Source: an uncultured Bacteroidales bacterium
Lineage (GTDB): Bacteria > Bacteroidota > Bacteroidia > Bacteroidales > WCHB1-69
Length of the DNA stretch: 64,000 bases
Assembly (NCBI GenBank): GCA_900315245.1
Contig: OMYJ01000003.1
Span: 32,121-96,120, forward strand
Reading direction: 5' to 3'
Of this stretch, positions 5,810-30,535 are shown piece after piece. Both the position numbers and the translations under genes were made by a program. The number at the start of each line of letters is the position of its first letter. Position 1 is the first letter of the stretch. The notes under the pieces were generated by a model. It was not told the DNA's origin. It worked only from the letters and a program-made list of their open reading frames with translations, and did no database searches.

Positions 5810-5811
5810 TT

Positions 5812-10934: not shown

Positions 10935-12308
10935 TTAATTTATTCCCAAGAAGTCGCTCAATGGACGAATCTTTGCTCGATATGTATTGATTTTTTGTTT
11001 CAAATTTGGTTGTTTAGGCATTTCAATTTCTTTTGAGCTATCAAAATGCAGTACGACATAATATGGTGAATGTTCGGGGTGAAAGCCATACTCTTCAAGC
11101 GTTTCTTTGGTCCAGATTTGGAAATGACCTTTGGTTCTCAAACGAAACAAATGGCAATCTTCACCACCTGTATGTAAAAGCACATATTGCATACGTTCAA
11201 ATCCTGGCGATACGAGCAATGACCCTTTTGAGTCGCCTGCACGAAGATAGCAAATGCCTTTCACCATCATCAGTTGCTTAGTTTCTTTGCGAGAATGATT
11301 GACTAAAACCATATCATTTTTCAAATCTGAAGTTTGCGTGTTACTTTTCAACTCACTTACAACTGATTCATCTATTTCAATTTTAGACCCATAAGTATTT
11401 GCTTTTATATCAGTCGAAGCACTAAATTGATGAACATCAACAAATTGATATGGCAGTTCTTTTATTAGTGTCTCCGTTGGTATGACTGAATTATCAATAT
11501 GAAATTCAAATCTACAATGAGAGTTTGTTGTTGCATCAACAACTTTTTCCTTGTAAAACAATCTAAAATCAATATTTATCTCATACCCAATTGAGTTTCT
11601 ATTTTGATTCAAAGCTGCTATGGCAGTAGTGCCACTTCCCATAAAAGGATCTAAAATAGTATCTCCCACAAAAGAGAACATTTTTATCAGTCGTTTTGGC
11701 AATTCTTCAGGGAAAACAGCAATATGTCTATTTTGCTTTGCTCCGCTAAATGTCCAATGGGAAGAAAAATATTCATTCCATTCATCTAAAGACAACTTAG
11801 ATGTTTCTTTTTGCTCCTTATTTACATGTGGAGCTTTGCCTAACTTTTTGAATAACAGTATCTGTTCAAAATCAATTTTTACAATGCCACCTCGTGGATT
11901 AGGGAAACTTCCCATGACTTTCTCTCCTCCAGAAGGATGCATTGAAGTCGGCTTTTGCCATATAATGCTTCCCAAATAATCAAAACCAATTGTTTCACAA
12001 AAGCGAATAATCTCGGAATGTATGGGAATAATTTTATATCTTCCATAGTACGCAGTTCGGGCGAATTGGTCACCTATGTTGATGCAAAGTCTGCAACCAG
12101 AGTGTAATACTCTATAGCATTCTTTCCAAACAAGATTTAAATTATTGATATATTGCTCGTAAGTATCGTTAAATCCTATTTGATTCGATGAGCCATAATC
12201 TTTCAATTGCCAATAAGGCGGAGAGGTTACAATAAGATGAACCGACTCATCTTGAATCAGTGACATCTTACGGCAATCTCCATTGATTAAAATATGGCTC
12301 GTTTGCAT
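10935..12308 (-). CDS. Type II DNA methyltransferase (beta class, SPPY motif; N4-cytosine or N6-adenine) with a ~170-aa C-terminal extension
   Basis: LIVTSPPYWQLKDYG ... ILDPFMGSGTTAIAALNQNRNSIGYEINIDF. AT-rich island. Confidence 0.85.
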   Translation of the reverse strand: MQTSHILINGDCRKMSLIQDESVHLIVTSPPYWQLKDYGSSNQIGFNDTYEQYINNLNLVWKECYRVLHSGCRLCINIGDQFARTAYYGRYKIIPIHSEIIRFCETIGFDYLGSIIWQKPTSMHPSGGEKVMGSFPNPRGGIVKIDFEQILLFKKLGKAPHVNKEQKETSKLSLDEWNEYFSSHWTFSGAKQNRHIAVFPEELPKRLIKMFSFVGDTILDPFMGSGTTAIAALNQNRNSIGYEINIDFRLFYKEKVVDATTNSHCRFEFHIDNSVIPTETLIKELPYQFVDVHQFSASTDIKANTYGSKIEIDESVVSELKSNTQTSDLKNDMVLVNHSRKETKQLMMVKGICYLRAGDSKGSLLVSPGFERMQYVLLHTGGEDCHLFRLRTKGHFQIWTKETLEEYGFHPEHSPYYVVLHFDSSKEIEMPKQPNLKQKINTYRAKIRPLSDFLGIN

Positions 12309-12317
12309 TGTATTCTA

Positions 12318-12953
12318 TCAAAGTTGTTTTAACCTTTCGATTTCGTTCACAATTTCGGGAATGACCTCTTTGTTTACAATTTCCTTTTTGCCATTAATCT
12401 TTTGAGAAAATAAGTAGAAAACTTTGCCGCCAAAGACTTCTGTAAATTTCTTATGTGTTTCTTGCTGCAAACCATATTCTTTGAAAATCTCTGGCAATTG
12501 TAATCCTTGATTGACGGGTTTTATTTGTAAGCCCAAGTATTTATCATTGATTTTAATAAAGAAATCAACATTAAATAGTCTATCCCACTCGTCTGGAGCT
12601 GGCTCTATAGTAATCTTTAGAATTGCTTGAAGTTGACCATAAATTGTCTGTATTTCCGTGGTGTAACCATCATAAGTTCGTTCAATAACTAACTGCTTCA
12701 TGTAGTCGATACAATCTTGTTCTGTAACATCCGCAACTTCAGCCTGAATCACTTCGGTAATTTTTACATATAGCTTTTTACCCAATTCTTCTATATGCTG
12801 TTCGGACTTGATATTTGTATAGTAATACTCTCTCCATTCCTCTAATGTCTTAGGTGAACATTTCCGAATTGCTTCAGATGTAGCTCCAACATTTCTTTTA
12901 AAGTTGAGCTGGAATCTATTCATTGCACTGTTTAAAATCCATTCTTTTGCCAT
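12318..12953 (-). CDS. Putative small type II restriction endonuclease
   Basis: 211-aa ORF between two methyltransferases. Candidate core LFNVDFFIKINDKYLGLQIKP (D ... Q-x-K variant of PD-(D/E)XK). Confidence 0.45.
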   Translation of the reverse strand: MAKEWILNSAMNRFQLNFKRNVGATSEAIRKCSPKTLEEWREYYYTNIKSEQHIEELGKKLYVKITEVIQAEVADVTEQDCIDYMKQLVIERTYDGYTTEIQTIYGQLQAILKITIEPAPDEWDRLFNVDFFIKINDKYLGLQIKPVNQGLQLPEIFKEYGLQQETHKKFTEVFGGKVFYLFSQKINGKKEIVNKEVIPEIVNEIERLKQL

Positions 12954-12977
12954 TGTATTATTTTTTTATTGTTCTAC

Positions 12978-14069
12978 TTAAATATTTGCTAATAATCCTA
13001 CTGTTATTGGTTTCTCTAACATATTTGAGTGTTCTTCGTATGTGATTGAGTATTCGCCAGATTTAGAGTCTAACGAAATACCATCAAGGTAATTAAACTC
13101 TATTTCTTCTTCTTGTTTTGTCATTACAGCTATATTCATAACCGAATTATAGTGTTTCACTTCTTTTCCTTGTGCTATTCGATGTTTAACAAAATCTGCG
13201 TGAGCATCAAAACGTTGCTTTATAAAATTGTTGCAAGAATCAATACTTATCGCATTGATATTATCCCTAATAATTGATTCAAAATTTGCATCAATCTCGT
13301 AACCATAACTATTTCTACCCAGCAAAATTGCAGCTTGCATTGTTGTTCCTGTACCAAGGAAAGGATCCAATACGGTATCACCTTTTTGAGAAAACATATT
13401 GATTAAACGATAAGGTATCTCAAAGGGGAAAGCAGCACTTCGTTCTCTCGATGAATTGCCTTGTAATTTTTGTTTTGTCCCTTTCACATCCCAAACATCA
13501 GAGAACCAAATATTTCTTTCTTCCCAAAAGAATGAACTTTTCATACGGTCTAATTTTGCGTCGCTTGTTTTAAATTTTCGCTTTTCACCTTTCCTGAATA
13601 TTAAAATCCATTCGTGTTCCAAGGTAACATACGCTCCACAAGGTAACATTCCACTTCCCATAAACTTATTTGGTGCATTAGTTTGTTTTCGCCAAATGAT
13701 GTTCGGTAGTCCAATAAAACCTATTTCCATGCATGTTTTTGATACTCTGCTATGGTTATTGTAAAGCTTAAAATTTCCATTTATGGTTCTTGTTGCATCT
13801 CCTATATTTATGCACAAAAAACCACCTGGTCTAATAACACGAAAACATTCTTGCCAAACTTTATCTAATTCCGCATGCATCAATTCGAATGCGGTGTCAG
13901 GTTCAGTTTGTAGTGACTCAACAATTTTTGGGTTTTGTTTTCCCATTATCTTATCCCACATTTCAATCATTGGATATGGTGGAGATGTAACAACAAGATC
14001 AACTGAGTTATCTTGTGTTTGTTGCATCTTTTGTGATGCTCCTATATATACATTGTGAGTTGTGCACAT
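12978..14069 (-). CDS. Type II DNA methyltransferase (beta class, SPPY motif)
   Basis: LVVTSPPYPMIEMWD ... VLDPFLGTGTTMQAAILLGRNSYGYEIDANF. Confidence 0.85.
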   Translation of the reverse strand: MCTTHNVYIGASQKMQQTQDNSVDLVVTSPPYPMIEMWDKIMGKQNPKIVESLQTEPDTAFELMHAELDKVWQECFRVIRPGGFLCINIGDATRTINGNFKLYNNHSRVSKTCMEIGFIGLPNIIWRKQTNAPNKFMGSGMLPCGAYVTLEHEWILIFRKGEKRKFKTSDAKLDRMKSSFFWEERNIWFSDVWDVKGTKQKLQGNSSRERSAAFPFEIPYRLINMFSQKGDTVLDPFLGTGTTMQAAILLGRNSYGYEIDANFESIIRDNINAISIDSCNNFIKQRFDAHADFVKHRIAQGKEVKHYNSVMNIAVMTKQEEEIEFNYLDGISLDSKSGEYSITYEEHSNMLEKPITVGLLANI

Positions 14070-14071
14070 AA

Positions 14072-14347
14072 CTATCTCATTTTAACAATTTCCATTGCAT
14101 CATTAGCAATGTCTTTTTCTGGTTCAGTTATTTCCTTTATTAGGTCAGCGAGCCATAGCGTCAATAATTCTTTTTCGTCAGTATGTAATATGCTGGCGAG
14201 TTCAATTACTTGTTCACGCTTGGGTGAATAGTTGCCGTTTTCAATTTTGCAATAAGTTGCAGTGTCGATGTCGAGAGCTGCGGCAACTTTGCGTTGTGGC
14301 AAATTGCATTGCTTCCGTTGCTCTTTGAGTTTCTCTGATAACATCAT
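14072..14347 (-). CDS. XRE-family HTH protein, probably the R-M controller (C) protein
   Basis: LSEKLKEQRKQCNLPQRKVAAALDIDTATYCKIENGNYSPKREQVIELASIL. It is the first gene of the R-M operon. Confidence 0.7.
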   Translation of the reverse strand: MMLSEKLKEQRKQCNLPQRKVAAALDIDTATYCKIENGNYSPKREQVIELASILHTDEKELLTLWLADLIKEITEPEKDIANDAMEIVKMR

Positions 14348-14547
14348 TGCTTATAACTGTCTTGATAAATTTAATCTTGAAATATTTATGCAAAAATACA
14401 AAATCTTTCTGAGATGACGGTTGTATTTATTGTTAAGTTTTCAACATTGTATTAAGGATAATAACAAAAGCCCTTTATGTCAGGGGCTTTCAACAACGAA
14501 GTTCTTTGTGTATATCTGTGATAGTTCTATCAGGATGATCCTGCTAT

Positions 14548-14600
14548 CTAAGATTCTCCTTGAAAAACTCCGCCAGCGCATTCCAAGAAATGTAGTTGCC
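14548..14600 (-). pseudogene. 3'-terminal remnant of an alpha/beta-hydrolase gene (paralogue of 21658..22776)
   Basis: The minus strand reads ..GNYISWNALAEFFKENLR* versus GNYIPWDTVAEFFSKNL* in the intact gene. It starts directly after the stop of the MBL-rubredoxin gene. Confidence 0.55.
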
Positions 14601-15542
14601 CTATGCCCTGTTGAACTTCTCCTTCCCCTGCCTGCATCTCGGGCATTTCCAATCGTCGGGCAGGTCCTCGAAGGCCACGCCGTCGTGCTCGGCGGGGTCA
14701 TAGACGTAGCCGCAGATGGAGCAGACGTATTTGCCGGAGGTTTGCTGCTGGGAGAAATCCACATCGGCCAGGACGGTCGGCACGGGGTGGTCGAGGTCCA
14801 TCACACGCTTGGCCTCCAAGTTCTCGTAGCCCTGCGGGGTGTGGGTGCCGCAATAGACGGTGGGATGGTTGCGCACGAACTCGCGGATGCGGTCCTGCGT
14901 CTCGCGGGCGGCGGGCAGGTCGTCATACACCACCGAGAGCTTGTCCTCGTAGAGGGCTTCATCGACGTAGGTGATGTCGCCATGAAGCATATAGAACAAG
15001 CCGTCGTTTTCCACCACGATGATGCTGTTGCCCTTGGTATGGCCCTTGGCCTTGATGAGGTAGATGCCGTCGTGGATTTTCTGACTGTCGGGGAAGTTGT
15101 AATAGGGGCCGTCGGTGAAGCTGACGGGGACGAGATTCCCAAGCCCCTGGAGCTCGGCAGCGTCCATCTCGTCGGCATTGACATAGACCTTGGCGTTGGG
15201 GAAGCTTTTCAGTTCGCCGCTGTGGTCGGCGTGTTTGTGGGTGAGCAGGATCTTGGTCACCTGCTCGGGCTTGTAGCCGAGGGCCGCGAAGGCCTCCATG
15301 TAGCTTCAGATGTCCTTGCCGGTGAAGGCCAACGAGTTCTCATCGGGTGCTTCCTCGGGCGTGCCAGCGGGGAGTCCTGTATCCACTATAATCACCTCGC
15401 TGCCGGTGTCGATGAGGTAGTTTTGCAAGCTGCCACGATAGCGGATGTTGCGGTCGAATTTGTCAGGGCCTTCTTCGCCGCCCATGACGAAAGGCTGGGT
15501 GTAGAAACCCTCTTTTCTGAATTTTACTGCTTTGATTTCCAT
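14601..15542 (-). pseudogene. MBL-fold metallo-hydrolase with C-terminal rubredoxin domain, interrupted by one in-frame TGA
   Basis: ORFs 15306..15542 (..NYLIDTGSEVIIVDTG..) and 14601..15299 ([11 protein letters not shown] ... [20 protein letters not shown]) are in the same frame. Only TGA (15308-15306) plus two codons separates them: GKDI*SYMEAF. Confidence 0.7.
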
Positions 15543-15712: not shown

Positions 15713-16285
15713 TCAGTAGTCCAACAGCCGACCGTAATCGTTCCATTCGCCGAACATCTTTCCCTTTTTCGTCTCTTCGACGAGGTGGGCGAGGGCTTGC
15801 TGGTACATCTGAGCGTCCCTCTTCTTGTAGAAGGCCACGTTGTAGGCGCGGATGCGCTGATACAGGGACGGAAAGGACTTGAACTTTGTCCACGCTCGCG
15901 CCGCCTTCAATGCCGCTTCCACGTCCTCGTCGATGCGGAAGCTGCGCGCGCCCATCGGGGGCAGCACCCGCCGTCCGGCATCGGTCATCCGTCCCAACTT
16001 CTCCAACCGCCGCGCACGTTCCTTGTTCAGCTCCGACCAGGGACTGTTGCGCTTTCGTGGCGTGAAACACTGCATCAGCACCCCGTTGATGGGTTTCTGG
16101 CGGCTGTCGATCCAACCGAAGCAGAGGGCCTCCTCCACCGCGTCGAGATACCAGAAGGTATCATCCTCAGTGGGGCGACCGCGCTTCACACACACCCAGC
16201 ACGCTTTTTCTGTCGTGTGGTGGGTTTCAAGCCATTGGCGAAACTCGTTGCGGGTACGTATGTCAAGGATGTTTTGTTCTTCCAT
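15713..16285 (-). CDS. YdeI/OmpD-associated family protein
   Basis: FRQWLETHHTTEKACWVCVKRG...YLDAVEEALCFGWIDSRQKP...FTPRKRNSPWSELNKERARRLEKLGRM. Confidence 0.75.
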   Translation of the reverse strand: MEEQNILDIRTRNEFRQWLETHHTTEKACWVCVKRGRPTEDDTFWYLDAVEEALCFGWIDSRQKPINGVLMQCFTPRKRNSPWSELNKERARRLEKLGRMTDAGRRVLPPMGARSFRIDEDVEAALKAARAWTKFKSFPSLYQRIRAYNVAFYKKRDAQMYQQALAHLVEETKKGKMFGEWNDYGRLLDY

Positions 16286-16294
16286 AAGTGAGGG

Positions 16295-16581
16295 TTGGTT
16301 ACTTCGTGTTGGTTACTTCGTGTTGATTACTTTGTGTTGATTACTTCGTGTTGGTTACTTCGTGTTGGTTACTTCGTGTTGATTACTTCGTGTTGGTTAC
16401 TTCGTGTTGGTTACTTCGTGTTGGTTACTTCGTGTTGGTTACTTCGTGTTGGTTACTTCGTGTTGATTACTTCGTGTTGATTACTTCGTGTTTGTGACTT
16501 CGTGTTGATTACTTCGTGTTAGTTATTTCATGTTAGTTATTTCATGTTAGTTATTTCATGTTGATGAGTGAATGTTAACAC
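16295..16581. repeat. Left half of a dyad tandem-repeat array (about 19 units of 14 nt, ending in the GTTAAC centre)
   Basis: (G/A)(G/A)TTACTTCGTGTT units grade into AGTTATTTCATGTT, then gatgagtgaatGTTAACac. It starts 10 nt from the ydeI-like ATG. Confidence 0.95.
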
Positions 16582-16611
16582 CTTATTCATATCGCTTGTT
16601 TTTTGAGTTTG

Positions 16612-16619
16612 CAAAGATA
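16612..16619 (-). promoter_or_regulatory. -7 box (CAAAGATA on the + strand) at the left end of the insertion, reading into the array and the ydeI-like gene
   Basis: gtttgcaaagatag. Transcription from here would cross 16581-16295 before the ATG at 16285. Confidence 0.4.
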
Positions 16620-16788
16620 GTAAAATATCACTCTGCAAAATGCAATCTTTAGTATTTTACCGCCGCAGCGACTTTGCCTTTGAGGAGTTTGCGCAGCTCG
16701 TACTCCAGTTTGGCGGCGGCGAAATCCGAGCGGAAAGCGTGCCTGGTCGCCCTAAAGTAAAAAGAATTAGACTTTAAGACACCATTAG

Positions 16789-16821
16789 TTTAACGTACTC
16801 GAAATATCAGGTCATAAAAAC
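16789..16821 (+). repeat. 33-nt direct repeat tttaacgtactcgaaatatcaggtcataaaaac (copy 1)
   Basis: Identical to 18234-18266. The two copies bracket the small-ORF block. Confidence 0.9.
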
Positions 16822-17033
16822 TGGATGTCGTGTTCCTGGATCCCGCGTATCCTGTTGGCCTTCATGTCCATCTTCAGCCCGCAGGTCTGCGCCCGCTGGA
16901 CGAATCTCACCTCCCCGTTCTTTGTGTAGAAGGATATGGAGAAATAGACCGGCTTCCCGCCAGCCTCTTTGATTTCCATTTCTTTCAGCGCCATCGCGCG
17001 TTTGATTTTCTTCATCTGTGGAATTTTCGGCAA
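16812..17033 (-). CDS. Hypothetical 73-aa protein
   Basis: ORF MPKIPQMKKIKRAMALKEMEIKEAGGKPVYFSISFYTKNGEVRFVQRAQTCGL... I recognise no family, and its stop lies inside the 33-nt repeat. Confidence 0.3.
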   Translation of the reverse strand: MPKIPQMKKIKRAMALKEMEIKEAGGKPVYFSISFYTKNGEVRFVQRAQTCGLKMDMKANRIRGIQEHDIQFL

Positions 17034-17075
17034 AAGTACTTCTGTTCATCCGTTCGGGTTGGGAACAAAAAAAAA

Positions 17076-17096
17076 GGCATCGCCTGTGGCGATGCC
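17076..17096 (-). terminator. Rho-independent terminator after paralogue A
   Basis: Stem GGCATCGCC/GGCGATGCC with a 3-nt loop. On the minus strand it is followed by a 9-nt U tract (a-run 17067-17075). Confidence 0.7.
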
Positions 17097-17118
17097 CTCT
17101 GCTTCAATTCTGTTTTTT

Positions 17119-17502
17119 TCATCCTCCCATGCCTCCGATAATCGGTGCCATCCACGTCATCGGGTTAGGTGCATGTTTTTTCTTTATTTCTTGTATAGCC
17201 TTGTCCCTGCCGTCGAGGAATGCTGTCGTAAAATCCGATTCTGACATTCCATTCAGGACATAAATGCAATCCTCCGTTTCTATTCCTTTTCCGAGAACGT
17301 TTCCGAAGTCGTCCGTCACTTCATTCAGCTCGTTGAAAAAATCCACCGAGCAGTATGTTTCCCACCACGCCATGCTCAAGCATCTTTGATTCATGAATGT
17401 CTTGACTATATCGTATATCGCGCTCTCAAGTTTTATCCTTTGGTCTATGTCCATCGGACCGTCTATGATTTGCTTTTCCATGACACGAGGTTTTTCATCC
17501 AT
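17119..17502 (-). CDS. Small acidic hypothetical protein, paralogue A (likely start at MEKQIIDG)
   Basis: Nearly identical to B over MEKQIIDGPMDIDQRIKLESAIYDIVKT..CLSMAWWETYCSVDFF..GNVLGKGIETEDCIY. It shares the C-terminus NPMTWMAPIIGGMGG with C. Confidence 0.55.
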   Translation of the reverse strand: MDEKPRVMEKQIIDGPMDIDQRIKLESAIYDIVKTFMNQRCLSMAWWETYCSVDFFNELNEVTDDFGNVLGKGIETEDCIYVLNGMSESDFTTAFLDGRDKAIQEIKKKHAPNPMTWMAPIIGGMGG

Positions 17503-17843
17503 GCCAGTGGACTGATTTCATCTTCATTTATCTCCTGTATTGCTTTTTCTTTTCCGTAGTGGAAAGCTGTCGTAAAATCGAATTCTGACTCCCTGTTCAG
17601 GATATATATGCAATCCTCCGTTTCTATTCCTTTTCCGAGAACGTTTCCGGAATCGTCCGACACTTCATTCAGCTCGTCGAAAAAATCCACCGAGCAGTAT
17701 GTTTCCCACCACGCCATGCTCAAGCATCTTTGATCCATGGATGTCTTGACTATATCGTATATCGCGCTCTCAAGTTTTATCCTTTGGTCTATGTCCATCG
17801 GACCGTCTATGATTTGCTTTTCCATGACACGAGGTTTTTTCAT
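17463..17843 (-). CDS. Small acidic hypothetical protein, paralogue B
   Basis: Tandem duplicate of A. Its 3' end overlaps the start of A in another frame. Confidence 0.5.
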   Translation of the reverse strand: MKKPRVMEKQIIDGPMDIDQRIKLESAIYDIVKTSMDQRCLSMAWWETYCSVDFFDELNEVSDDSGNVLGKGIETEDCIYILNRESEFDFTTAFHYGKEKAIQEINEDEISPLAWMKNLVSWKSKS

Positions 17844-17848
17844 AAAAA

Positions 17849-17865
17849 CATCGCCTGTGGCGATG
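17849..17865 (-). terminator. Hairpin/terminator after paralogue C (same module as 17076-17096)
   Basis: catcgcc tgt ggcgatg, followed on the minus strand by uuuuuau. The flanking ~70 nt is repeated at 17097-17160 and 17866-17930. Confidence 0.55.
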
Positions 17866-17889
17866 CCCTTTGCTTCAATTCTGTTTTTT

Positions 17890-18216
17890 TCATCCTCCCA
17901 TGCCTCCGATAATCGGTGCCATCCACGTCATCGGGTTTAGCTTGTGCTCTTCTCGGTATTCGCGACACGCCTCCTCCCTTGCATCTTCGAACGCGTTCCA
18001 GATTTCCTCCATATTTTCTTCGGTTATCCTGTATACGTTTTCCTCCAGTTCGATTATGTCTTTGTCATCGAAATACACGTCAAAGCTGACCATCTCATGC
18101 CAAGTAATGGTTAATCCGCTGTACTCGATAGAATCTTTAATGTTATCGTAGATTTGATTTTTCAAATCCTCTCTTTGTTGTGCGTTTAAATGACCGTCTA
18201 TGATTTGTTTCTCCAT
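17890..18216 (-). CDS. Small acidic hypothetical protein, paralogue C (divergent)
   Basis: MEKQIIDGHLNAQQREDLKNQIYDNIK...ITWHEMVSFDVYFDD... ends in KLNPMTWMAPIIGGMGG. Confidence 0.55.
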   Translation of the reverse strand: MEKQIIDGHLNAQQREDLKNQIYDNIKDSIEYSGLTITWHEMVSFDVYFDDKDIIELEENVYRITEENMEEIWNAFEDAREEACREYREEHKLNPMTWMAPIIGGMGG

Positions 18217-18233
18217 TACACGAGTTTTTTTGT

Positions 18234-18266
18234 TTTAACGTACTCGAAATATCAGGTCATAAAAAC
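18234..18266 (+). repeat. 33-nt direct repeat (copy 2)
   Basis: Identical to 16789-16821. Confidence 0.9.
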
Positions 18267-18395
18267 CTATAGAATGGTACGTTTTGTGAATCATATTATT
18301 ACAACGATTTTTGTCTAAAAAAATTGTGCAACTTCGCATTTTTTGAACTTCTCAATTAACGGCACAAAACTACAAAAAAAGCCGTCACAATCTGC

Positions 18396-18550
18396 AACAG
18401 CTTTCAAAAACTGATCAAACATCCGAAAATGCGATTTTGGGTTATGGTGTCACTTGGTAGTCAAAGTTGGTGGACAGTCCGATGAGGGAGTCCATCACCG
18501 AAGCGATGAAACCGAGCAGTTTGGACTTGAAGCCGGGGCGTTTGTCTGCT
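18396..18550 (-). repeat. Second copy of the IS-end-like repeat, with the ORF tail ..KRPGFKSKLLGFIASVMDSLIGLSTNFDYQVTP*
   Basis: Reverse-complement homology to 3108-3218. Confidence 0.4.
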
Positions 18551-18811
18551 ATATGATGCGGTACTTTTTGCCCTCCTTGTTTATGTCCTATGATTTTTCG
18601 TTATGTTAAAGCGGTTGTCCGAATCTGTTACGGTCGCGAAGGTTGGCGGGCCGTTAGGTCTGCGGGCATAAATCGAATCCCACGCCGTTTTCCATAATCC
18701 CCGCACACCTACGGCGTGCGGAAAAACCAAAACGCCGCCCCCATCCCTACCGAGCCCTTCAGCCCTAACGGGCTGTGTCGTGTATGAATAGTCTTCCGTT
18801 GATACGGTCGC

Positions 18812-19201
18812 GAATGTTAACACGAAGGCTAACCAACAGCGCAGCTAACCAACACGAAGTAATTAACAGCCGCAGGCTCACCAACAGCGAAGCTCACCAA
18901 CAGCCGTAGGCGCATCAACAGCGAAGCTAACCAACAGCCGAAGGCTAACCAACAGCGAAGCTTACCAACACGAAGTAATTAACAGCCGCAGGCTTACCAA
19001 CAGCGAAGCTAACTAACAGCCGAAGGCTAATCAACAGCCGAAGGCTAACCAACAGCGAAGCTAACTAACAGCCGAAGGCTCACCAACAGCCGAAGGCTAA
19101 CCAACAGCGAAGCTAACTAACAGCCGAAGGCTAACCAACAGCGAAGCTAACCAACAGCCGAAGGCTAATCAACAGCCGAAGGCCTGTCAACACGAAGTAA
19201 A
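18812..19201. repeat. Right half of the split dyad array (16/18-nt units)
   Basis: gaatGTTAACacgaaggctaaccaacagc..., then alternating AACAGCCGAAGGCTNANY and AACAGCGAAGCTNANY, ending in caacacgaagtaa. It overlaps the last 12 codons of the CPBP ORF. Confidence 0.95.
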
Positions 19202-19962
19202 CAAACTCCTGCGACGGCTAACACCAAGCTTGCGACGACCACCTTCCAGTCCGGCTGGATGATGACCGGTGTTTTCGCCATCTGCATCTCTCCAAGCCCC
19301 ATCCAGCAGTAAACGGCGAGGAGCGTGGCGGTGAGGTTGCATCCGGCGTGGAGCGCCACGCTATACCAGATGTTTCGCGACCAGATATACACCATCCCGT
19401 AGAACAGGGCGCTGATGAAAGCCCCCGGAAAGTTGCGCACGTGGAGTATTCCGAACAGGAAGGCCATCACCACGCAGACGGCGATCTGTGCGCAGCGACG
19501 GCGGAAAGGGGAGATGGCCATCTGCCTGAAACACAGCTCTTCGAGAACCGGCGCAAGCAGCACGGCGTGTACGCTTGACAAAAGGTCTTCGCGCAGCTCT
19601 GCGGTCGTGTAGGTGAGTGGTTCCATCTTCACTGTATGGACCAAAGACGTGATGCCATAAACGATATACTCTTCCGCCACGAGCCACAGAGGCGCTATCA
19701 GCAACAGTCCTGCGATGATGGGGAATCGCGGCAGCTTCAGCGAAAATTGTCCGGCTTCGGGAAACACTTTCGGTTCGACACGGCACACGAGGAAGATCGT
19801 CAGGGCGATGCCCGCCAAGGTGAGCAGCCACGTCAGCAGTTCGCCCGTGAAACCCGGATTGTCGCCCGCGACCGGCATAGCCGTCACATAGATGATGGCT
19901 GTGCCGTATGCCGCCGCCAGTATCGGCATCAAGGGTCTTAGGAATTGGGTTGCTTTGTTCAT
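19165..19962 (-). CDS. CPBP-family intramembrane glutamic endopeptidase (CAAX protease/Abi)
   Basis: LAPVLEELCFRQ and FGILH motifs in a multi-pass membrane protein. Start chosen at MNKATQFLRPL (the ORF is open up to 20055). The C-terminus LLRVDRPSAVD* is encoded by the repeat array. Confidence 0.7.
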   Translation of the reverse strand: MNKATQFLRPLMPILAAAYGTAIIYVTAMPVAGDNPGFTGELLTWLLTLAGIALTIFLVCRVEPKVFPEAGQFSLKLPRFPIIAGLLLIAPLWLVAEEYIVYGITSLVHTVKMEPLTYTTAELREDLLSSVHAVLLAPVLEELCFRQMAISPFRRRCAQIAVCVVMAFLFGILHVRNFPGAFISALFYGMVYIWSRNIWYSVALHAGCNLTATLLAVYCWMGLGEMQMAKTPVIIQPDWKVVVASLVLAVAGVCLLRVDRPSAVD

Positions 19963-20044
19963 ATCGTTAAAATCAACAGTTTCTTGCTTTGACAATTGTG
20001 TTCGGGCTTCTTGAATATGTGGAACTCTTGATTTGCGCGTGACC

Positions 20045-20851
20045 TCATACCTCAATCATTGCGGAAAAGTCAAACCCATTAGTCAGATGTTCCCCGTGGG
20101 AGACGTACCCCAACTGATTAGACACGATACAAGTTCTACCAATTTGAGCCTTTATGTTGCGGTGCGAGTGGCCGTATATCCAGAAGTCAATGCCACTGTC
20201 GGCAATAAAGTCGCCAAGTTCCACGGTGAATGCACCGTTAATCGTGCTATTCCGGAATTCCTCGGCGGTGCACAGCTGCGTGGGCACGTGATGAGTGAGC
20301 ACAATTTTTGTTTTTGCAGTGCTTTCCGTAACCGCTCGTTTGATGAATGCAAGACAACGCTCGTGCTCACGGTTGAAGTCGTCGGCGGTCAGCCGGTGAT
20401 TGCCGTAAATAATACGGTAAAAATCGCTGACATTGCGTTCCGTCAGGAAAGCATTATGCGGCTCAATCTTCGACCACAAAGCCGATACTATGATATCGAC
20501 TTCTCCGATATGCACAATACCATTGTAGTAGGCGTGCACGTTGTGACGGATCTCTTTGCAGTATCCTTCCGGTATGGAAGAGAGGTCGTAATATCCGTAA
20601 AATTCGTGGTTACCCAAACAGACAATCACCTGTTTGTAATGGTTGCTTGCCCAATCCCAAAATTCGTATTGGGAATAGGTGTCGTGTTTGGAGTCCGGCA
20701 AATCAAGGTAAGCCGTGTCGCCGGCAACAAGCAGTATGTCGCCCGTCACTTCCAATGGATGTTCGGCAATCCATTGTCGGTTTTGCGGAAACTCCAAATG
20801 CAGGTCGCTGACATATTGGATGCGCAGACATTGTGGAGTATAAGATGCCAT
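20045..20851 (-). CDS. Metallophosphoesterase
   Basis: IQYVSDLHLEF..VTGDILLVAGD..GNHEFY..THH..GHSH. The ORF stays open upstream to 21067; that extension (..LVYVGGAMAGVYATDPAA..) looks like the N-terminus of a different protein. Confidence 0.7.
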   Translation of the reverse strand: MASYTPQCLRIQYVSDLHLEFPQNRQWIAEHPLEVTGDILLVAGDTAYLDLPDSKHDTYSQYEFWDWASNHYKQVIVCLGNHEFYGYYDLSSIPEGYCKEIRHNVHAYYNGIVHIGEVDIIVSALWSKIEPHNAFLTERNVSDFYRIIYGNHRLTADDFNREHERCLAFIKRAVTESTAKTKIVLTHHVPTQLCTAEEFRNSTINGAFTVELGDFIADSGIDFWIYGHSHRNIKAQIGRTCIVSNQLGYVSHGEHLTNGFDFSAMIEV

Positions 20852-21050
20852 CTGATGCATGGTTTCAAGGAGCATATCCACGCGTTCGATCTCATCTGAC
20901 GGCAATGCGCACTCCAACTCCTCAGGGAAATTGGAGCGTTGCAACGTGGCGGCTGGATCCGTGGCATATACGCCGGCCATTGCCCCGCCGACATACACAA
21001 GCCGCTCGTTAAGGTCTTGCATACCCTCCGCCACCTCTTGCAGACGTTCG

Positions 21051-21581
21051 TTATTGGTTTTCGACATAGCGGTTGATATGTTTGGTGAGTTCTTCAATGG
21101 CGATCTCCCTCTCCCGGGCGCGGCCGAGGCGGAGCGTGTCGGCAATCACCAACAATTGGTAAAGCTCATCATCTTGCAAAACGGCGCCTGGAACAGAAGG
21201 ATATAAGGGCTCTATTTGTTGTCCTCTGGCATTTCCTTTCGTATAATGCCATACATAGCTCTCACTGCTGTTTGAGATTTGCTCCTTCAGGGGTGAGGCG
21301 CTGATGTAGGCCGGCACGCCGCGTACAACTCGTCCGGTGACGGCGGGAAAGACATACTGCAAGCCGTGAATCAGAAACTCCTGCAAAGCCATTGTGTTGA
21401 CACGCTTTTTATTGCGGTCTATCAGTTGAACATTCCGGCAACGCTCCAAACTCTCGCTCACACTGGATGAGCTCATCCCTAACGATTCCGCCAGCTTCCG
21501 GCACGACAAATGCTGTCCTGACGGTGTCATTTTCTTTAACAATATTACAATATCTTGCGGCTTCATCATATTATATATCAA
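21051..21581 (-). CDS. wHTH protein, putative transcriptional regulator / antitoxin-like
   Basis: LSCRKLAESLGMSSSSVSESLERCRNVQLI is a helix-turn-helix. I recognise no precise family. Confidence 0.45.
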   Translation of the reverse strand: MIYNMMKPQDIVILLKKMTPSGQHLSCRKLAESLGMSSSSVSESLERCRNVQLIDRNKKRVNTMALQEFLIHGLQYVFPAVTGRVVRGVPAYISASPLKEQISNSSESYVWHYTKGNARGQQIEPLYPSVPGAVLQDDELYQLLVIADTLRLGRAREREIAIEELTKHINRYVENQ

Positions 21582-21657
21582 TCATTTACAATTAACTGTT
21601 CGCCGTTCGCGATTTTCGAACGCATTCACCGCGCAAAAATACAAAAAAAGCAAAGCC

Positions 21658-22776
21658 TTACAGATTCTTGCTAAAAAACTCCGCCACCGTGTCCCACGGG
21701 ATGTAGTTGCCCTCGCCGCCGTCGTAGAGGTCGCAGTGGGTGGCGCCGGGGATGATGAGCAGCTGCTTGTTGTCAGGGTTGGGATTCGGCTTGCCGATGA
21801 AGTTGTAACCTTCGGCCTTGCCATCCACCATATAGTGGTAGGCCGCCTCGCCGAAGTAGCGGCTGTGGGCCTTCTCGCCGTGCATCACGAGGACGGCGGA
21901 ACGGATCTCGTTGATGTAGTAGAGGAAGCGGGCGTTGGCGTATGCCTGCGTGCCGATGACGCGCCAGCCATCGTTGCTGTTGCCACTGCGCTTGTGGTAG
22001 CCGCGCGGGGTCTTGTAGTAGGCGTGGTAGTCTTTCACGAACTGCGGAACCTCATCGGGCAGCGGGTCGATGACGCCGCCGGCCATCGCCAGCGGGTCGG
22101 CGAGACGCTGCTTGCCCATTGCCTCACGTGCAGCATGGCGTGACTCCTCTTTGTCGTCGCTGTCGTAGTAGCCGTTGCCGCTGACGCGGGTCATGTCGTA
22201 CATCGTGCTGGCCACGGTGGCCTTGATGCGCGGGTCGGCAGCGGCGGCATTCAGGGCGATGCCACCCCAACCGCAGATGCCGATGATGCCGATGCGCTCA
22301 GGGTCCACATTCTCTAACTGCGACAGGAAATCAACAGCGGCCATAAAGTCCTCCGTGTTGATGTCGGGCGAGGCCGTGCGACGGGGCTCGCCGCTGCTCT
22401 CACCGGTGTACGACGGGTCAAAAGCCAGTGCCACGAAGCCGCGTTCCGCCATCTTCATAGCGTAGAGGCCACTGCTTTGCTCCTTCACGGCGCCGAAAGG
22501 TCCGCTCACAGCGATGGCGGGGAGACCCCTCCCCCCGCCATCCCCAAAGGGGAGGGAGCCTTTTGGCTCATACAAATCTGCGGCCAAGGTCAGGCCGTAC
22601 TGTGTTTCAAACGTCACCTTGCGGTGGTTCACTTTGTCGCTGAGGGGGAACACCTTGTCCCACTCCTGCGTGAGGTTCAATTCCTGTTTCATATTCTCGT
22701 TGTTATTTGTTTCTTGCTTGTTGCCGCAGGCGGCCAGTGACAGTGCCGCGAGGGCGAAGAGGATGAGTTTTTTCAT
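21658..22776 (-). CDS. Alpha/beta hydrolase lipoprotein
   Basis: Lipobox MKKLILFALAALSLAACGN. It has a nucleophile-elbow context IGIIGICGWGG and a C-terminal GATHCDLYD. Confidence 0.8.
   Translation of the reverse strand: MKKLILFALAALSLAACGNKQETNNNENMKQELNLTQEWDKVFPLSDKVNHRKVTFETQYGLTLAADLYEPKGSLPFGDGGGRGLPAIAVSGPFGAVKEQSSGLYAMKMAERGFVALAFDPSYTGESSGEPRRTASPDINTEDFMAAVDFLSQLENVDPERIGIIGICGWGGIALNAAAADPRIKATVASTMYDMTRVSGNGYYDSDDKEESRHAAREAMGKQRLADPLAMAGGVIDPLPDEVPQFVKDYHAYYKTPRGYHKRSGNSNDGWRVIGTQAYANARFLYYINEIRSAVLVMHGEKAHSRYFGEAAYHYMVDGKAEGYNFIGKPNPNPDNKQLLIIPGATHCDLYDGGEGNYIPWDTVAEFFSKNL
22519..22560. repeat. In-frame G/C-rich palindromic element inside the hydrolase CDS (encodes GSLPFGDGGGRGLP)
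   Basis: ggggagacccctccccccgccatccccaaaggggagggagcc. Its reverse complement aligns with the element at 299-338. Confidence 0.6.
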
Positions 22777-22790
22777 ATCGGTTATTATAC

Positions 22791-23225
22791 GTTAGTTATT
22801 TCATGTTGGTTACTTCGTGTTGGTTATTTCATGTTGGTTACTTCGTGTTAGTTATTTCATGTTGGTTATTTCATGTTAACACGAAGTAATTAACAGCCGA
22901 AGGCTTACCAACAGCGAAGCTAATTAACAGCCGAAGGCTTACCAACAGCGAAGCTAATTAACAGCCGAAGGCTTACCAACAGCGAAGCTAATTAACAGCC
23001 GAAGGCTAACTAACAGCGAAGCTCATCAACAGCCGAAGGCTAACTAACAGCGAAGCTAATTAACAGCCGAAGGCTCACCAACAGCGAAGCTAACCAACAG
23101 CCGAAGGCTAATCAACAGCGAAGCTAACTAACAGCCGAAGGCTAACTATCAGCCGAAGGCTTACCAACAGCGAAGCTAATTAACAGCCGAAGGCTTACCA
23201 ACAGCGAAGCTCATCAACACGAAGT
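22791..23225. repeat. Complete dyad tandem-repeat array (centre GTTAAC at 22875-22880)
   Basis: The left arm starts 14 nt from the ATG at 22776. The right arm ends ..gctcatcaacacgaagt and supplies TSC* of the CDS ending at 23214. Confidence 0.95.
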
Positions 23226-23759
23226 GATCTCTCGTATCACTTTCGCCGGACTCCCCGCCACCACCATATTGTCGGGCACGTCCTTGTTGACCACGCTGCC
23301 AGCCGCCACGATAGCGTTCTCGCCGATGGTGACGCCTGCCAGCACTTTCACGTCGGCGCCGAGCCATGCGTTGCGTTTCACCACGATGGGTTTGGTGAGC
23401 AGCGTGTGACGCGCGGCGGGGTCTTCGGGATGGTATTCGGTGGCTAACACGCAATGCGGACCGATGAAGACGTCATCCTCGATGGTGATGCCGCCTATGG
23501 CCAACAGCGTGCAACCGAAGTTGAGGAAGCAGTCGTTGCCGAAGCGCACGCCCGGTCCGTAGTTGATGTTGAGCGGCGTAAACACTCGCACGGTGTCGGG
23601 CACCTCGCTGCGGGTGATCTCGCGCAGATAGTCGCGCACCTCCGCTTCGGTGTGGTAGCCGCTGTTCATCTCGGCGCAGAGCTGCATCGTGCGCTGCACG
23701 TCGGCGTAGAGGTCGTCGCTGCCGACGTAGTCTTTTCCTGTGGGTTTGTCGTTCGTCAT
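23214..23759 (-). CDS. Maltose/galactoside-type sugar O-acetyltransferase (hexapeptide repeat)
   Basis: Start trimmed to MTNDKPTG (ATG 23759). LNINYGPGVRFGNDCFLNFGCTLL..EDPAARHTLLTKPIVVKRNAWLGADVKVLAGVTIGENAIVAAGSVV..VVAGSPAKVIR. Confidence 0.8.
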   Translation of the reverse strand: MTNDKPTGKDYVGSDDLYADVQRTMQLCAEMNSGYHTEAEVRDYLREITRSEVPDTVRVFTPLNINYGPGVRFGNDCFLNFGCTLLAIGGITIEDDVFIGPHCVLATEYHPEDPAARHTLLTKPIVVKRNAWLGADVKVLAGVTIGENAIVAAGSVVNKDVPDNMVVAGSPAKVIREITSC

Positions 23760-23760
23760 T

Positions 23761-24378
23761 TTACCGGATGAAATTCGTGAATACCGCTTCTTCCGCCTCG
23801 GGCAGACCGTTGCGCTCCTTCTCCGCGGCGATGGCCTTGACGAGGAAGGCGATGTTGCGGCCGAGGATGCGCATGCACTGCACGCCCTCCGCATCCTGCA
23901 TGACGTCTTCGGCACAGTGACCGTGTACCATGTTCCAGTAGCGGGTGCTGGCGATGGGCATCTCGCTGATGGTGAAGTACTTGTTCAGCTGGTCGAAAGT
24001 GGCGGTGGTGCCGGCGCGTCGGGCCGAGCAGACCGCGGCGCCCACCTTCATGCACTTCCGGAAGTGCGTGCTGAAGAAGAGGCGGTCGAGGAAGGATTTC
24101 ATCGTGCCGGCAATGCCCGCGTAATAGACCGGCGAGCCGATGACCAGTGCGTCGGCTTGCTCGAATTTCGGGGCGACTTCGTTCACGATGTCATCGAAGA
24201 CGCATTTGCCTGTTTCGTAGCATTTCCCGCAGCTGATGCAGCCGTGGATGTTTTTGTGTCCCACGTGGACGATTTCGGCTTCAACGCCGTTTTTCTGTAA
24301 TTCTTCCGCCACAAGGCTCAGGGCGGTGAAGGTGCAGCCCTTCGCGTTGGGACTGCCATTGATAAGAAGTGCTTTCAT
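23761..24378 (-). CDS. Flavodoxin-family NAD(P)H-dependent oxidoreductase (iron-sulfur flavoprotein type)
   Basis: MKALLINGSPNAKGCT..HGCISCGKCYETGKCVFDD..ALVIGSPVYYAGIAGTMKSFLDR. Confidence 0.8.
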   Translation of the reverse strand: MKALLINGSPNAKGCTFTALSLVAEELQKNGVEAEIVHVGHKNIHGCISCGKCYETGKCVFDDIVNEVAPKFEQADALVIGSPVYYAGIAGTMKSFLDRLFFSTHFRKCMKVGAAVCSARRAGTTATFDQLNKYFTISEMPIASTRYWNMVHGHCAEDVMQDAEGVQCMRILGRNIAFLVKAIAAEKERNGLPEAEEAVFTNFIR

Positions 24379-24385
24379 ATCTTTT

Positions 24386-24697
24386 AAGTGAATGTTTATT
24401 ACTTCGTGTTGATTACTTCGTGTTGGTTACTTCGTGTTGGTTATTTCATGTTGATTATTTCATGTTGGTTATTTCATGTTGGTTATTTCATGTTGGTTAT
24501 TTCATGTTAACACGAAGTAATTAACAGCGAAGCTAATTAACAGCCGAAGGCTAATCAACAGCGAAGCTAACTAACAGCCGAAGGCTAATCAACAGCGAAG
24601 CTAACTAACAGCCGAAGGCTAATCAACAGCGAAGCTAACTAACAGCCGAAGGCTAACCAACAGCGAAGCTAACTAACAGCCGAAGGCTAACTAACTA
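24386..24697. repeat. Complete dyad array (centre GTTAAC at 24506-24511)
   Basis: The boundary aagtgaatgtt lies 8 nt from the ATG at 24378. The right arm runs into the TAG stop (24695-24697) of the next gene. Confidence 0.95.
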
Positions 24698-25825
24698 TTT
24701 TAGTGTTCCATATTGTTCGTCGCTGACGGGCTCCAGCCATTCGTTGCTGGCCCCTTCCTGCACGTCCTTATGGTAGGTGAGGTGCTGCATCCAGCTGTCT
24801 TTGGCGGCGCCGTGCCAGTGCTTCACACCCTCGGGAATCTCAATGATTACGCCAGGCTCCAACTTGACAGCGGGCTTGCCCCATTCCTGGTACCAACCAC
24901 GGCCATAGACGCACACCAACACCTGCACCTGCTTGTGGTGGATGTGCCAGTTGTTGCGGCATCCCGGCTCGAAGGTCACGTTGACCATGCCGCCATCGTA
25001 GGGCGCAAGGTAGCTGTTGCCGATGAAGTACTGTGCGTAGGCGGTGTTCGGCTCGCCTCTGCGCCAGTTCGACTTCAAGTCAACGTAGTTCTGGACGTAT
25101 ATATCGCTGGCGAGGTGGTCGTTGGCAGAATCGCTGATGCCCAACTGCTGAATGGCCACGGCGACACGGTGCGCTTCCATTTTGCCCACACGCTCCTGCA
25201 ACACCTTCGGGATGGCGAGCAGCTGGGCGTCGGTCAGACCCATGTTCCGTGCGCCGCGCACGTGGGCGGCCAGCTGGGGTTCCACGCCCTCCAGACCAGC
25301 CAAAGCACTGACGGTCACCAACTCGCGGTCGGCGTGGGTGAGCAGGTCGCGGGCGAAGATGTCGCCGAAGAGGTGCGCCTTGAGGTAGTAGTCCTCGGCG
25401 GGACAGAACTTGTAGTCGAAGGGTTGCCCCGACAGTTTGGTCTGCACTTCGGTGCCTTGTTTCAGGGCGTCGTAGCTGCCGGGAATCGGAGAGGACTCCT
25501 CCCCTGTCGTCACCTCACCGCGCTGTTCCATCACCTTCTGCAGGGTGCCTAATGCGTTGAGCGAGCGCGGAAATCCCGTGTAGGCGTAGAGTTGCGAGAG
25601 GGCCTCCTTGATCTGGTTGGCGGTAAGCCCCGCGTCGAAGCCCTCATGGATGGCGGTGGCTAACGACGTTTGGTCGCCCTGCGCCTCGTAGCAGGCGATG
25701 GCCGTCATCGCCGCCGCCTGCTTCTCGTTGAATGTCAAAGTGTTCATATCTTTGTCTGTTTTTGTTGTCTTGTTGCAGCCGGCCATCAACACGATGGCGG
25801 CGAAAATCAGAAGGGTGTGTTTCAT
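24695..25825 (-). CDS. Carboxymuconolactone decarboxylase (AhpD-like) family protein fused to a cupin domain; lipoprotein
   Basis: Lipobox LIFAAIVLMAGCN. Two CMD-like segments are followed by NNWHIHHKQVQVLVCVYGRGWYQEWG..IPEGVKHWHGA. Confidence 0.7.
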   Translation of the reverse strand: MKHTLLIFAAIVLMAGCNKTTKTDKDMNTLTFNEKQAAAMTAIACYEAQGDQTSLATAIHEGFDAGLTANQIKEALSQLYAYTGFPRSLNALGTLQKVMEQRGEVTTGEESSPIPGSYDALKQGTEVQTKLSGQPFDYKFCPAEDYYLKAHLFGDIFARDLLTHADRELVTVSALAGLEGVEPQLAAHVRGARNMGLTDAQLLAIPKVLQERVGKMEAHRVAVAIQQLGISDSANDHLASDIYVQNYVDLKSNWRRGEPNTAYAQYFIGNSYLAPYDGGMVNVTFEPGCRNNWHIHHKQVQVLVCVYGRGWYQEWGKPAVKLEPGVIIEIPEGVKHWHGAAKDSWMQHLTYHKDVQEGASNEWLEPVSDEQYGTLK

Positions 25826-25843
25826 AATATTTTGAATTGTTTG

Positions 25844-28485: not shown

Positions 28486-28490
28486 GAGAA

Positions 28491-30275: not shown

Positions 30276-30316
30276 AGTCTATTTTATGTCTATTTTATCG
30301 GATGAAATTCGTTTAA

Positions 30317-30535
30317 GTGAATGTTGGTTACTTCGTGTTAGTTACTTCGTGTTAGTTACTTCGTGTTAGTTATTTCATGTTGGTGACTTCGTGTTGGTGA
30401 GTGAATGTTAACACGAAGTCATTAACAGCGAAGCTAACTAACAGCGAAGCTAATCAACAGCCGAAGGCTAACTAACAGCGAAGCTAATCAACAGCCGAAG
30501 GCTAACTAACAGCCGAAGGCTCATCAACACGAAGT
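30317..30535. repeat. Complete dyad array (centre GTTAAC at 30407-30412)
   Basis: The boundary gtgaatgtt is at 30317. The right end ..ggctcatcaacacgaagt supplies TSC* of the ClbS-like CDS. Confidence 0.95.

Follow-up and report, generated by a model that had tools for sequence, protein, structure and literature searches.

An intergenic array of short repeats, located at 16295-19201 of a 64,000-nucleotide stretch of contig OMYJ01000003.1 from an uncultured rumen Bacteroidales bacterium (the whole stretch is called the window, and all coordinates without a further label refer to it), is interrupted at its dyad centre by foreign DNA, bounded by a 12-bp direct duplication. The 2,230-bp insert is a phage-derived mosaic, with both outer ends lying within truncated genes. 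Comparison with related sequences, indicated by L numbers, suggests an old inherited insertion, endowed with its own predicted promoters, and not an active mobile element.

Seven two-armed arrays, built on one shared plan, are present in the window; six are continuous and the seventh is split. The left arm is composed of 14-nt units (GTTGGTTACTTCGT or GTTAGTTATTTCAT), the right arm of 16- or 18-nt units (AACAGCGAAGCTAACC or AACAGCCGAAGGCTAACC), which correspond to the reverse complement of the left unit with either GCGAAGC, known as an extraordinarily stable DNA mini-hairpin (PMC13037366), or GCCGAAGGC inserted. Between the arms lies the centre, GTTAACAC, which marks all seven two-armed arrays and is restricted to array centres, being found at 22875, 24506, 28564, 30407, 31172 and 32059, and in two copies in the split array. 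According to an arm census, the right arm of the six intact arrays begins within 30 bp of the left arm; in the split array one arm is found on each side of the insert, and the two are 2.2 kb apart. When the intact array at 30322..30529, used as a reference, is folded as a single strand, its arms pair into one long hairpin (z = -8.0 as DNA, -8.7 as RNA), and the centre borders the apical loop, which ends at the GTT of the centre.

The left half of the split array features a left arm only (16295..16569, units at 16302-16565), consisting of about 19 units of the 14-mer GTTGGTTACTTCGT (Tandem Repeats Finder, TRF: period 14, 19.3 copies; arm census), the innermost of which is GTTGATGAGTGAAT. It is followed by the left copy of the 12-mer GAATGTTAACAC (16570..16581), which contains the central palindrome GTTAAC. 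The right copy (18812..18823) starts the right half, which features a right arm only (18824..19201, units at 18835-19182), with about 19-21 units of the 16- and 18-mers AACAGCGAAGCTAACC and AACAGCCGAAGGCTAACC (TRF and census). The 12-mer, present at both insert junctions, occurs exactly three times in the window, the third copy, at 30403-30414, being the single one of the reference array, whose innermost unit is as in the split array; none would be expected by chance, as evaluated by 100 dinucleotide-preserving shuffles of the window. The 12 duplicated bases straddle the GTT/AAC axis, with 7 nt on one side and 5 on the other. Furthermore, the right half keeps the GAAT which constitutes the last 4 nt of the innermost unit of the left arm, GTTGRTGAGTGAAT, indicating that the two halves formed one array in the past, arranged like the intact one at 30390-30420. 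An earlier note, made from the sequence alone, had proposed an array split at its centre by a 2.2-kb insertion with a 12-bp duplication, having a left arm only on one side and a right arm only on the other; all this holds, and the 12-mer, as the note required, is not spread over many array ends.

The left arm is flanked by a YdeI/OmdA-like gene of 190 aa (15713..16285, minus strand; Pfam OmdA, E=3e-5; PF28474 precomputed), whose ATG is 9 nt from the arm, so that its transcription must pass through the arm. On the other side, the stop codon of a CPBP/Rce1-like protease gene (19165..19962, minus strand; Pfam Rce1-like, E=5e-17) abuts the right arm. Identical junctions are found in 13 independent assemblies encoding identical flanking proteins; the split structure is therefore no assembly artefact.

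The G+C content of the insert is 0.44-0.47, versus about 0.55 in the flanks. Read on the minus strand, from the CPBP side, the right 12-mer is followed by a GC-rich palindrome with an 11-bp repeat, described below, and by the internally deleted remnant of a protein, X (18445..18576), which ends in KRPGFKSKLLGFIASVMDSLIGLSTNFDYQVTP before its stop and was recognized by translation, homologues and tblastn. A "head" module (18357..18498, minus strand) comprises the end of gene X together with its terminator (18377-18405) and with a -7 box facing the cargo (TAGTTTTG, 18365-18372). The cargo block is enclosed between two copies of a 33-nt repeat (18234..18266 and 16789..16821), which are, as previously noted, 100% identical. 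It contains, all on the minus strand, the three paralogous small open reading frames (ORFs) already recognized in the earlier note: paralogue 1 (17890..18216, 108 aa) is 42% identical to paralogue 3; paralogue 2 (17463..17843, about 119-126 aa) shares 92% DNA identity with paralogue 3 (17119..17502, 120-127 aa), a small phage protein with no domain match. After cargo ORF 3 come a predicted hairpin resembling an intrinsic terminator (17072..17100) and a 73-aa truncated copy of a 96-aa phage gene (16812..17033), cut off by the 33-nt repeat. Beyond the repeat lies a remnant of a "tail" module (GGGCGACC, then GGCACGC; 16659..16757, minus strand), fused to codons ~41-65 of a 256-aa phage gene; the fused ORF remnant, ending in FAAAKLEYELRKLLKGKVAAAVKY before its stop, corresponds to an "85-aa ORF" of relatives, and compared with L035 it has lost about 230 bp at an ATTTCG/AATTCG microhomology. 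The last segment of about 75 bp (16582..16658, minus strand), found by BLAST only beside the array centre, carries a predicted outward promoter of the Bacteroidetes type, whose -7 box (TATCTTTG, 16612-16619) faces outward on the minus strand, as had been claimed, and is kept in every relative listed; it leads to the left 12-mer, the left arm and the YdeI-like ATG.

The collinear identity of the insert to viral contigs reveals its origin. In less degraded copies of the insert (L034, L035, L029, L040, L061) the original frame is composed of X' (36-40 codons), terminator and promoter, cargo, tail module, the 85-aa ORF and the outward promoter. The parent order is present in L129, a viral contig from IMG/VR, where a full-length X (196 aa) is followed by a slot, holding a 323-aa and a 440-aa gene, by the tail module and by the 256-aa gene. 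The 85-aa ORF coincides with the first 65 codons of the latter, beyond which phage homology is lost; the "tail of an ORF" of the earlier note is thus present, and is to be read as the beginning of this gene. The pieces of the frame found in the window are 93-97% identical to L129 and collinear with it (head, 93%, L129 13405-13284; tail, 97%, L129 10412-10348), so that the frame begins within X, of which the last ~40 codons are kept, and ends within the 256-aa gene, of which the first ~65 are kept. The cargo matches elsewhere: 17495-16822 shares 94% identity, over 675 bp, with L130, another IMG/VR contig, and 90% with L018, and in both cases homology ends at 16822, exactly at the 33-nt repeat. 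L130 and L018 represent one phage type (90.5% identity over 12 kb), and L018 carries a DUF6712 gene and a 1,706-aa tape-measure gene. Since the frame matches one contig and the cargo another, the insert is a mosaic of two phage-derived parts, with both ends in truncated genes, which does not fit the discrete mobile element initially envisaged. A prophage remnant was also considered and rejected: the order X'-slot-256' is collinear with the phage, and not permuted around an attP site.

Neither the cargo ORFs, nor X, the 85-aa ORF or the neighbouring phage genes have a match in NCBIfam or Pfam. Among 5.8 billion proteins the cargo family amounts to only 11 clusters, all lacking a name or a domain; an AlphaFold2 (AF2) model of paralogue 3 has a pLDDT of 87, with no Foldseek match at E <= 0.001 in PDB or BFVD, and the model of X (pLDDT 32) is unusable. 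No Rfam family, tRNA or tmRNA, which might have served as att target, was found over the window or in 16200-19300. Neither the 33-nt repeat nor the array centre has a match in IMG/VR. The 33-nt repeat (TTTTATGACCTGATATTTCGAGTACGTTAAA) is near-invariant and flanks each cassette in L001, L002, L025 and L060, the ORFs between its copies being unrelated or only 42% identical (231 aa in L060; 108, 118 and 120 aa in L001); it marks the boundary of the cargo block and behaves like a cassette boundary.

Other remnants of X are found outside the insert. One, ending in MNTLIGQSTNLDDDPVTP before its stop and followed by terminator and promoter, is located at 3030-3252 (plus strand) and is 82% identical to 18365-18496; it contains the second copy of the head module in the window (3109-3242), and no tail module was found with it. 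Immediately downstream of this remnant is a low-G+C (0.31-0.33) island (3276-6981), encoding a 175-aa protein, an N6/N4 methyltransferase and two proteins of unassigned function. A degenerate phage-like island, with X remnants, tandem head and tail modules and an N-terminal tape-measure fragment, is present between rplS (L19) and ychF in L025 (7400-10800) and L049 (8000-12400); the shared word GCGCRACCGT is where, in L025, the 256-aa gene and X' are fused.

Both junctions, which read GTGTTAACATTC/GCGACC and GATATGAAYAAG/GTGTTAAC, are identical among five GTDB species representatives (L027, L029, L034, L035, L040), and recur in more than 15 metagenome contigs. Some relatives are devoid of one 14-nt arm unit beside the centre, and only 10 bp (GTGTTAACAT) are common to both their junctions. 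Between conserved head and tail modules, at least six cargoes are found across relatives: the small phage ORFs, present in close strains in one to three copies, a membrane protein of 173 aa, a lipoprotein of 255 aa, another of 101 aa, a 231-aa protein with the 33-nt repeat on either side, and a 363-aa protein. Six or more cargoes at a conserved slot point to present turnover in this internal slot. The surroundings vary too. In L029, L034, L035 and L040 the right arm abuts the stop codon of a gene for a hydrolase (hydrolase-372), and the block of CPBP, metallophosphoesterase and helix-turn-helix (HTH) genes is absent; the block (19165-21581) corresponds to an indel bounded by the outer end of the arm. 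Beyond the left arm lie YdeI-like genes or others (L027, L029, L052, L059). Downstream of the YdeI-like gene, the MjaI-like restriction-modification, HTH and lactamase_B-rubredoxin genes of the window (10935-15299) are replaced, in some strains (L005, L010), by a PhzF-like gene and a 130-138-aa ORF. By these comparisons DNA turnover appears to occur, today, in the internal cargo slot and at the arms, and not at the array centre. We read this as one old insertion, whose halves would later have been shuffled by array-array recombination; alternatively, repeated site-specific re-insertion may have taken place.

A further insertion took place close to the main one. The GC-rich imperfect palindrome (18641..18803; self-inverted BLAST match, fold z = -7.8) is flanked by an 11-bp direct repeat, TTCGCGACCGT, reported in the window as ACGGTCGCGAA, with the inner copy at 18630..18640 and the outer one at 18804..18814, overlapping the 12-mer by 3 nt. 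In L034 the palindrome is absent and X' lies directly at the array centre (GTGTTAACATTC/GCGACCGTCTCC); in L029, L035 and L040 a palindrome of about 218 bp splits the L034-type sequence, which reads up to TTCGCGACC on one side and resumes with TTCGCGACCGTCTCC on the other. In the window the palindrome is shortened, its 3' part being lost. Set against a MITE, a short non-coding element with a target-site duplication, terminal inverted repeats and many copies, it has the flanking direct repeat and a strong internal palindrome; its extreme ends are not inverted repeats, and it was found at a single site among all loci compared. It is a nested insertion, with an 11-bp duplication, 9 bp from the main one, and later than it, since the duplicated 11-mer spans the older array/X' junction. 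The repeated word at 18630 and 18804 had been rightly noted; its interpretation as an IS-end-like repeat gives way to that of a duplication around this palindrome.

An empty site was searched for among contigs encoding the exact flanking proteins, GTDB representative genomes and 78 metagenome loci. Fifteen YdeI-like homologues of at least 90% identity are accompanied by the insert and eight have no arm at all; all homologues of 83% identity or less are without arrays, and no uninterrupted array lies directly upstream of a YdeI-like gene in the relatives having upstream DNA. In L051, the CPBP gene is followed by an uninterrupted mini-array, and so is hydrolase-372 (first left unit, ATTCGCTCACCAAC), with other genes downstream in both cases. 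The check proposed in the earlier note therefore yields no strict empty site, and an uninterrupted array, in a relative, for each flank; the refuting case named there, of two halves that are nowhere contiguous, is neither borne out by the relatives nor fully dispelled.

An empty site is available for a second case. In L042 (1012-1413, plus strand) a PF05635 gene (23S_rRNA_IVP, a four-helix bundle) lies within an array located between GltD-like and HypA-like genes: its ATG comes right after AATGTT, and AAC, with the arm units, right after the conserved coding part, the ORF continuing into the arm units up to the TAA of GAAGTAA. The orthologous array of L043 (1440-1640) is uninterrupted (AAATGTTAACACGAAG), with flanks 77-78% identical to those of L042; a second PF05635 copy, placed in the same way in another array, is present in L043 (113-577, minus strand). 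Array centres thus do gain DNA, on the evidence of two independent cases, one with an empty-site control, as the earlier note had supposed; as for turnover at present, slot and arms seem to be its seat.

The arm motif is present in 19 stretches of metagenome-assembled genomes (MAGs) of uncultured rumen Bacteroidales, among them RUG125, RUG182, RUG312, RUG13189, RGIG1517, RGIG6723, ruminal_MAG_164 and UBA3810, with arms ranging from 2 units (L051) to 35 (32076-32657). A literature search with the unit sequences found no paper, and the array family itself appears to be undescribed. The genes between the window arrays are co-directional, on the minus strand, and of miscellaneous accessory functions (hydrolase, hexapeptide transferase, FMN reductase, CMD/cupin, amidohydrolase, GNAT, DinB-like, aldo-keto reductases). 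Two-armed arrays are found at every boundary of these co-directional cassettes (16295-32657; L029, L051, L057), the order of which varies by genome: after hexapep and FMN_red, a DinB-like cassette is found in L029 and CMD in the window. In all left arms, the ATGAAATAA units constitute Met-Lys-stop mini-ORFs in the 5' leader of the downstream gene, and a short ORF on the gene strand (16530-16595, minus strand; ATG AAT AAG GTG TTA ACA TTC ACT CAT CAA CAT GAA ATA ACT AAC ATG AAA TAA) spans the insert end and the left arm. A conserved promoter-like module, CATTCAAGAAAAGTTGTAYTTTTGCAG, directly follows mini-arrays, before different genes (L051:2985-3010, L051:5815-5840, L057:285-300).

The explanation we favour, and hold to be rather probable, is that the dyad centre of the array took up linear phage DNA in a single, ancient event, and that this DNA was then inherited or co-transferred and modified. 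The site of capture, the dyad centre, would be the apex of the hairpin that the array can form, with a 12-bp staggered opening across the GTT/AAC axis. The captured piece would extend from about codon 160 of the 196-aa X, through the variable "moron" slot, to codon 65 of the 256-aa gene, and would have brought along the 75-bp promoter segment; the route may have been fill-in and joining after a staggered break at the apex, or the action of an enzyme of some kind. Several rumen Bacteroidales species would have received the insert, immobile by itself, through inheritance or by co-transfer with its half-arrays. Later changes would include the insertion of the GC-rich palindrome 9 bp away, with its 11-bp duplication, drift of the arm copy number, exchange of the genes outside each arm by array-array recombination, and repeated cargo swaps, most likely by homologous recombination with phages sharing the head and tail modules, leading in the window to the three paralogous phage ORFs. 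The terminators of the insert would block read-through from the CPBP gene, and the predicted outward promoter would drive the YdeI-like gene through the 290-nt left arm, acting as a long 5' leader. The insertion with its duplication, the origin from phages, the common junctions and the variety of cargoes are seen directly in the sequences; the single event, the capture of a fragment and the function of the promoter are what we infer from the comparisons described.

Several observations weigh against this explanation. No YdeI-array-CPBP or YdeI-array-hydrolase site without the insert is found in the relatives examined, and the polarity of the event, as an insertion, relies on the 12-mer, the intact paralogous array and the half-site evidence of L051. 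The sharing among species could stem from horizontal transfer of the whole island, and not from age. The 75-mer promoter end has no match in the viral contig, and no source for it was found. In its promoter, the spacing from the -33 TTTG to the -7 box is 16 nt, and the consensus spacing of Bacteroides promoters is longer. The PF05635 insertion lies exactly at the GTT/AAC axis, without duplication, so that more than one mechanism is possible, or the 12-mer may be an att core. Finally, a 12-bp and then an 11-bp duplication at almost one spot look enzymatic, not accidental.

One alternative is site-specific integration, in which the palindromic centre GTGTTAACAC would be an attachment site having the 12-mer for its core, a recombinase encoded elsewhere would have promoted the entry of a circle carrying the same core, and the two 12-mers would be attL and attR, not a target-site duplication. 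An identical core is indeed present at both ends, the repeat being exact and containing a palindrome; the same axis is used by the unrelated PF05635 insert, with its empty-site control, and shuffled cassettes are delimited by arrays. Moreover, GCGACCGT is the junction in three contexts (array/X', the L025 256-aa-X' fusion, the flanks of the nested palindrome), as if it were a preferred crossover site. Yet no recombinase or transposase is encoded among the insert ORFs, in agreement with the earlier note, nor among those of 150 aa or more in the whole 64-kb window; the interior of a phage genome and the insert are collinear, and the insert is truncated within genes at both ends, unlike a prophage; the IVP insertion has no duplicated core; and neither a second insertion site nor an excised form was seen. 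On balance we regard this history as rather unlikely. More improbable is the remnant of a transposon or insertion sequence (IS) that produced a 12-bp target-site duplication, having since lost transposase and ends. The 12-bp direct duplication, the nearby insertion with its 11-bp duplication and the existence of IS elements targeting palindromic repeats (PMC1525189) would suit it. The ORFs of 16582-18811 have no Pfam or NCBIfam match and no transposase remnant (tblastn, Pfam), both ends are collinear with phage genes, and conserved terminal inverted repeats are absent: there is only an 8-bp match, TATTCATA, at unequal offsets, which is missing in the L010 and L034 variants, the right end differing in L034 with the junction fixed. 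One occupied site is found in all genomes examined; in the search for other copies, the whole insert was seen only with the same two junctions and at no unrelated site, and just the head module was found elsewhere (3109-3242, L025). Together these results make an IS origin very unlikely.

Nothing need have been inserted if the arrays are integron-like cassette junctions, each cassette having a half-centre at both ends, the 2.2-kb segment being an armless cassette. The order of the cassettes, differing between genomes with an array at every boundary, the variation of the arms from 2 to 35 units, the genes directly abutting the arms and the 33-nt repeat, which also flanks unrelated ORFs, all fit such a scheme. 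Against it, the GAAT of the left innermost unit, kept in the right half, testifies to earlier contiguity; an IntI-like gene is absent among the window ORFs of at least 150 aa, the integron core GTTRRRY is, by eye, not matched by the centre, and RecA-type recombination between arrays sharing hundreds of base pairs explains the shuffling equally well. The scheme is, in our opinion, improbable. Membership in integrons proper, characterised by an IntI integrase with attI and Pc and by attC sites with RYYYAAC and GTTRRRY boxes, was rejected, as no IntI is present among these ORFs and the centre GTGTTAACAC and the arm units, GTTRRTTA, misfit GTTRRRY by eye. Membership in rAID-1, defined by a 5' XerD-like recombinase at least 44% identical to BF9343_RS08045 and at least two co-directional downstream genes with a G+C of 41% or less (10.1101/471110), was rejected as well: no match of the Phage_integrase type is found in the window and the G+C of the insert is 0.44-0.47. 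A wider possibility is that array dyad centres are dedicated DNA-capture sites of an unrecognised cassette system of rumen Bacteroidales, of which the phage fragment and the IVP gene would be examples. The giant hairpin would show GTT/AAC at its tip or beside it, where it would be opened, and DNA inserted, by an enzyme encoded in trans or by a structure-specific nuclease together with repair; the arrays would then mobilise the captured genes as cassettes. We consider this unlikely, if of greater interest should it be true.

Cleavage by an HpaI-like enzyme, at GTT^AAC, was dropped as a source of the break, the avoidance of GTTAAC being not convincing (outside arrays, 1 observed versus 5.5 expected in the window; 18 versus 25 in 250 kb of related loci). 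Other palindromic hexamers are depleted in the array-masked window (GTCGAC, 0 observed versus 17 expected; CATATG, 2 versus 14) and in the 250 kb of related loci (0.23-0.27 of expectation), which suggests restriction avoidance.

The two cases show that hairpin-forming intergenic arrays take up foreign DNA precisely at their symmetry axis, and the locus of the window suggests that a captured phage fragment may rewire neighbouring accessory genes, through predicted terminators and an outward promoter, while its cargo continues to be exchanged with phages. It offers a concrete place for asking whether long natural palindromes are hotspots of gene gain in bacteria, and whether a dedicated enzyme or break repair is at work.

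Several known systems resemble parts of this picture. In rAID-1, repetitive intergenic sequences have a structure suggestive of gene acquisition (10.1101/471110). As with integron attC sites and rAID-1, co-directional accessory genes are here split by repeated foldable sites, a resident promoter, in this case a predicted one, reads into captured genes, and a 33-nt repeat flanks unrelated small ORFs. The arrays, in contrast, are made of tandem 14-18-bp units and not of single attC sites, no IntI- or XerD-like recombinase accompanies them, and gene content and G+C do not fit the definition of rAID-1. The slot recalls phage morons: in L129, as in the insert, it lies between conserved genes, right after a terminator, with its own promoter and variable contents; here, unlike in morons, it is also found in a chromosomal fragment detached from any phage. 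Intervening sequences (IVS) with PF05635 ORFs are located at helix tips in 23S rRNA, and the gene of L042 and L043 similarly lies at the tip of a hairpin-forming sequence; the host sequence is here an intergenic repeat array, not rRNA. IS1397, ISKpn1 and the IS110-family elements ISPpu9 and IS621 insert into the palindromes of repetitive extragenic palindromic sequences and bacterial interspersed mosaic elements (REP/BIME; PMC1525189, PMC12288879, PMC3333891). In those cases too, foreign DNA enters an intergenic repeat able to form a hairpin, at a position that is constant with respect to the palindrome; the IS elements are complete, carry a transposase, occur in many copies and generate 0-4 bp duplications, whereas the insert described here is a phage-gene fragment, without transposase, at one site and with a 12-bp duplication. 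Breakage would likewise occur at the apex of a sequence forming one long hairpin, the inserted spacer stabilising the inverted repeat, if the array behaved as long DNA palindromes do, which are subject to breakage at their centre and repair, for instance through hairpin cleavage by SbcCD. To our knowledge, a 12-bp duplication or the capture of phage DNA is no documented outcome of such breakage. By analogy, the event would be a variant of repeat-targeted DNA gain, working in the manner of both IS insertion into REP/BIME and breakage at palindrome centres.

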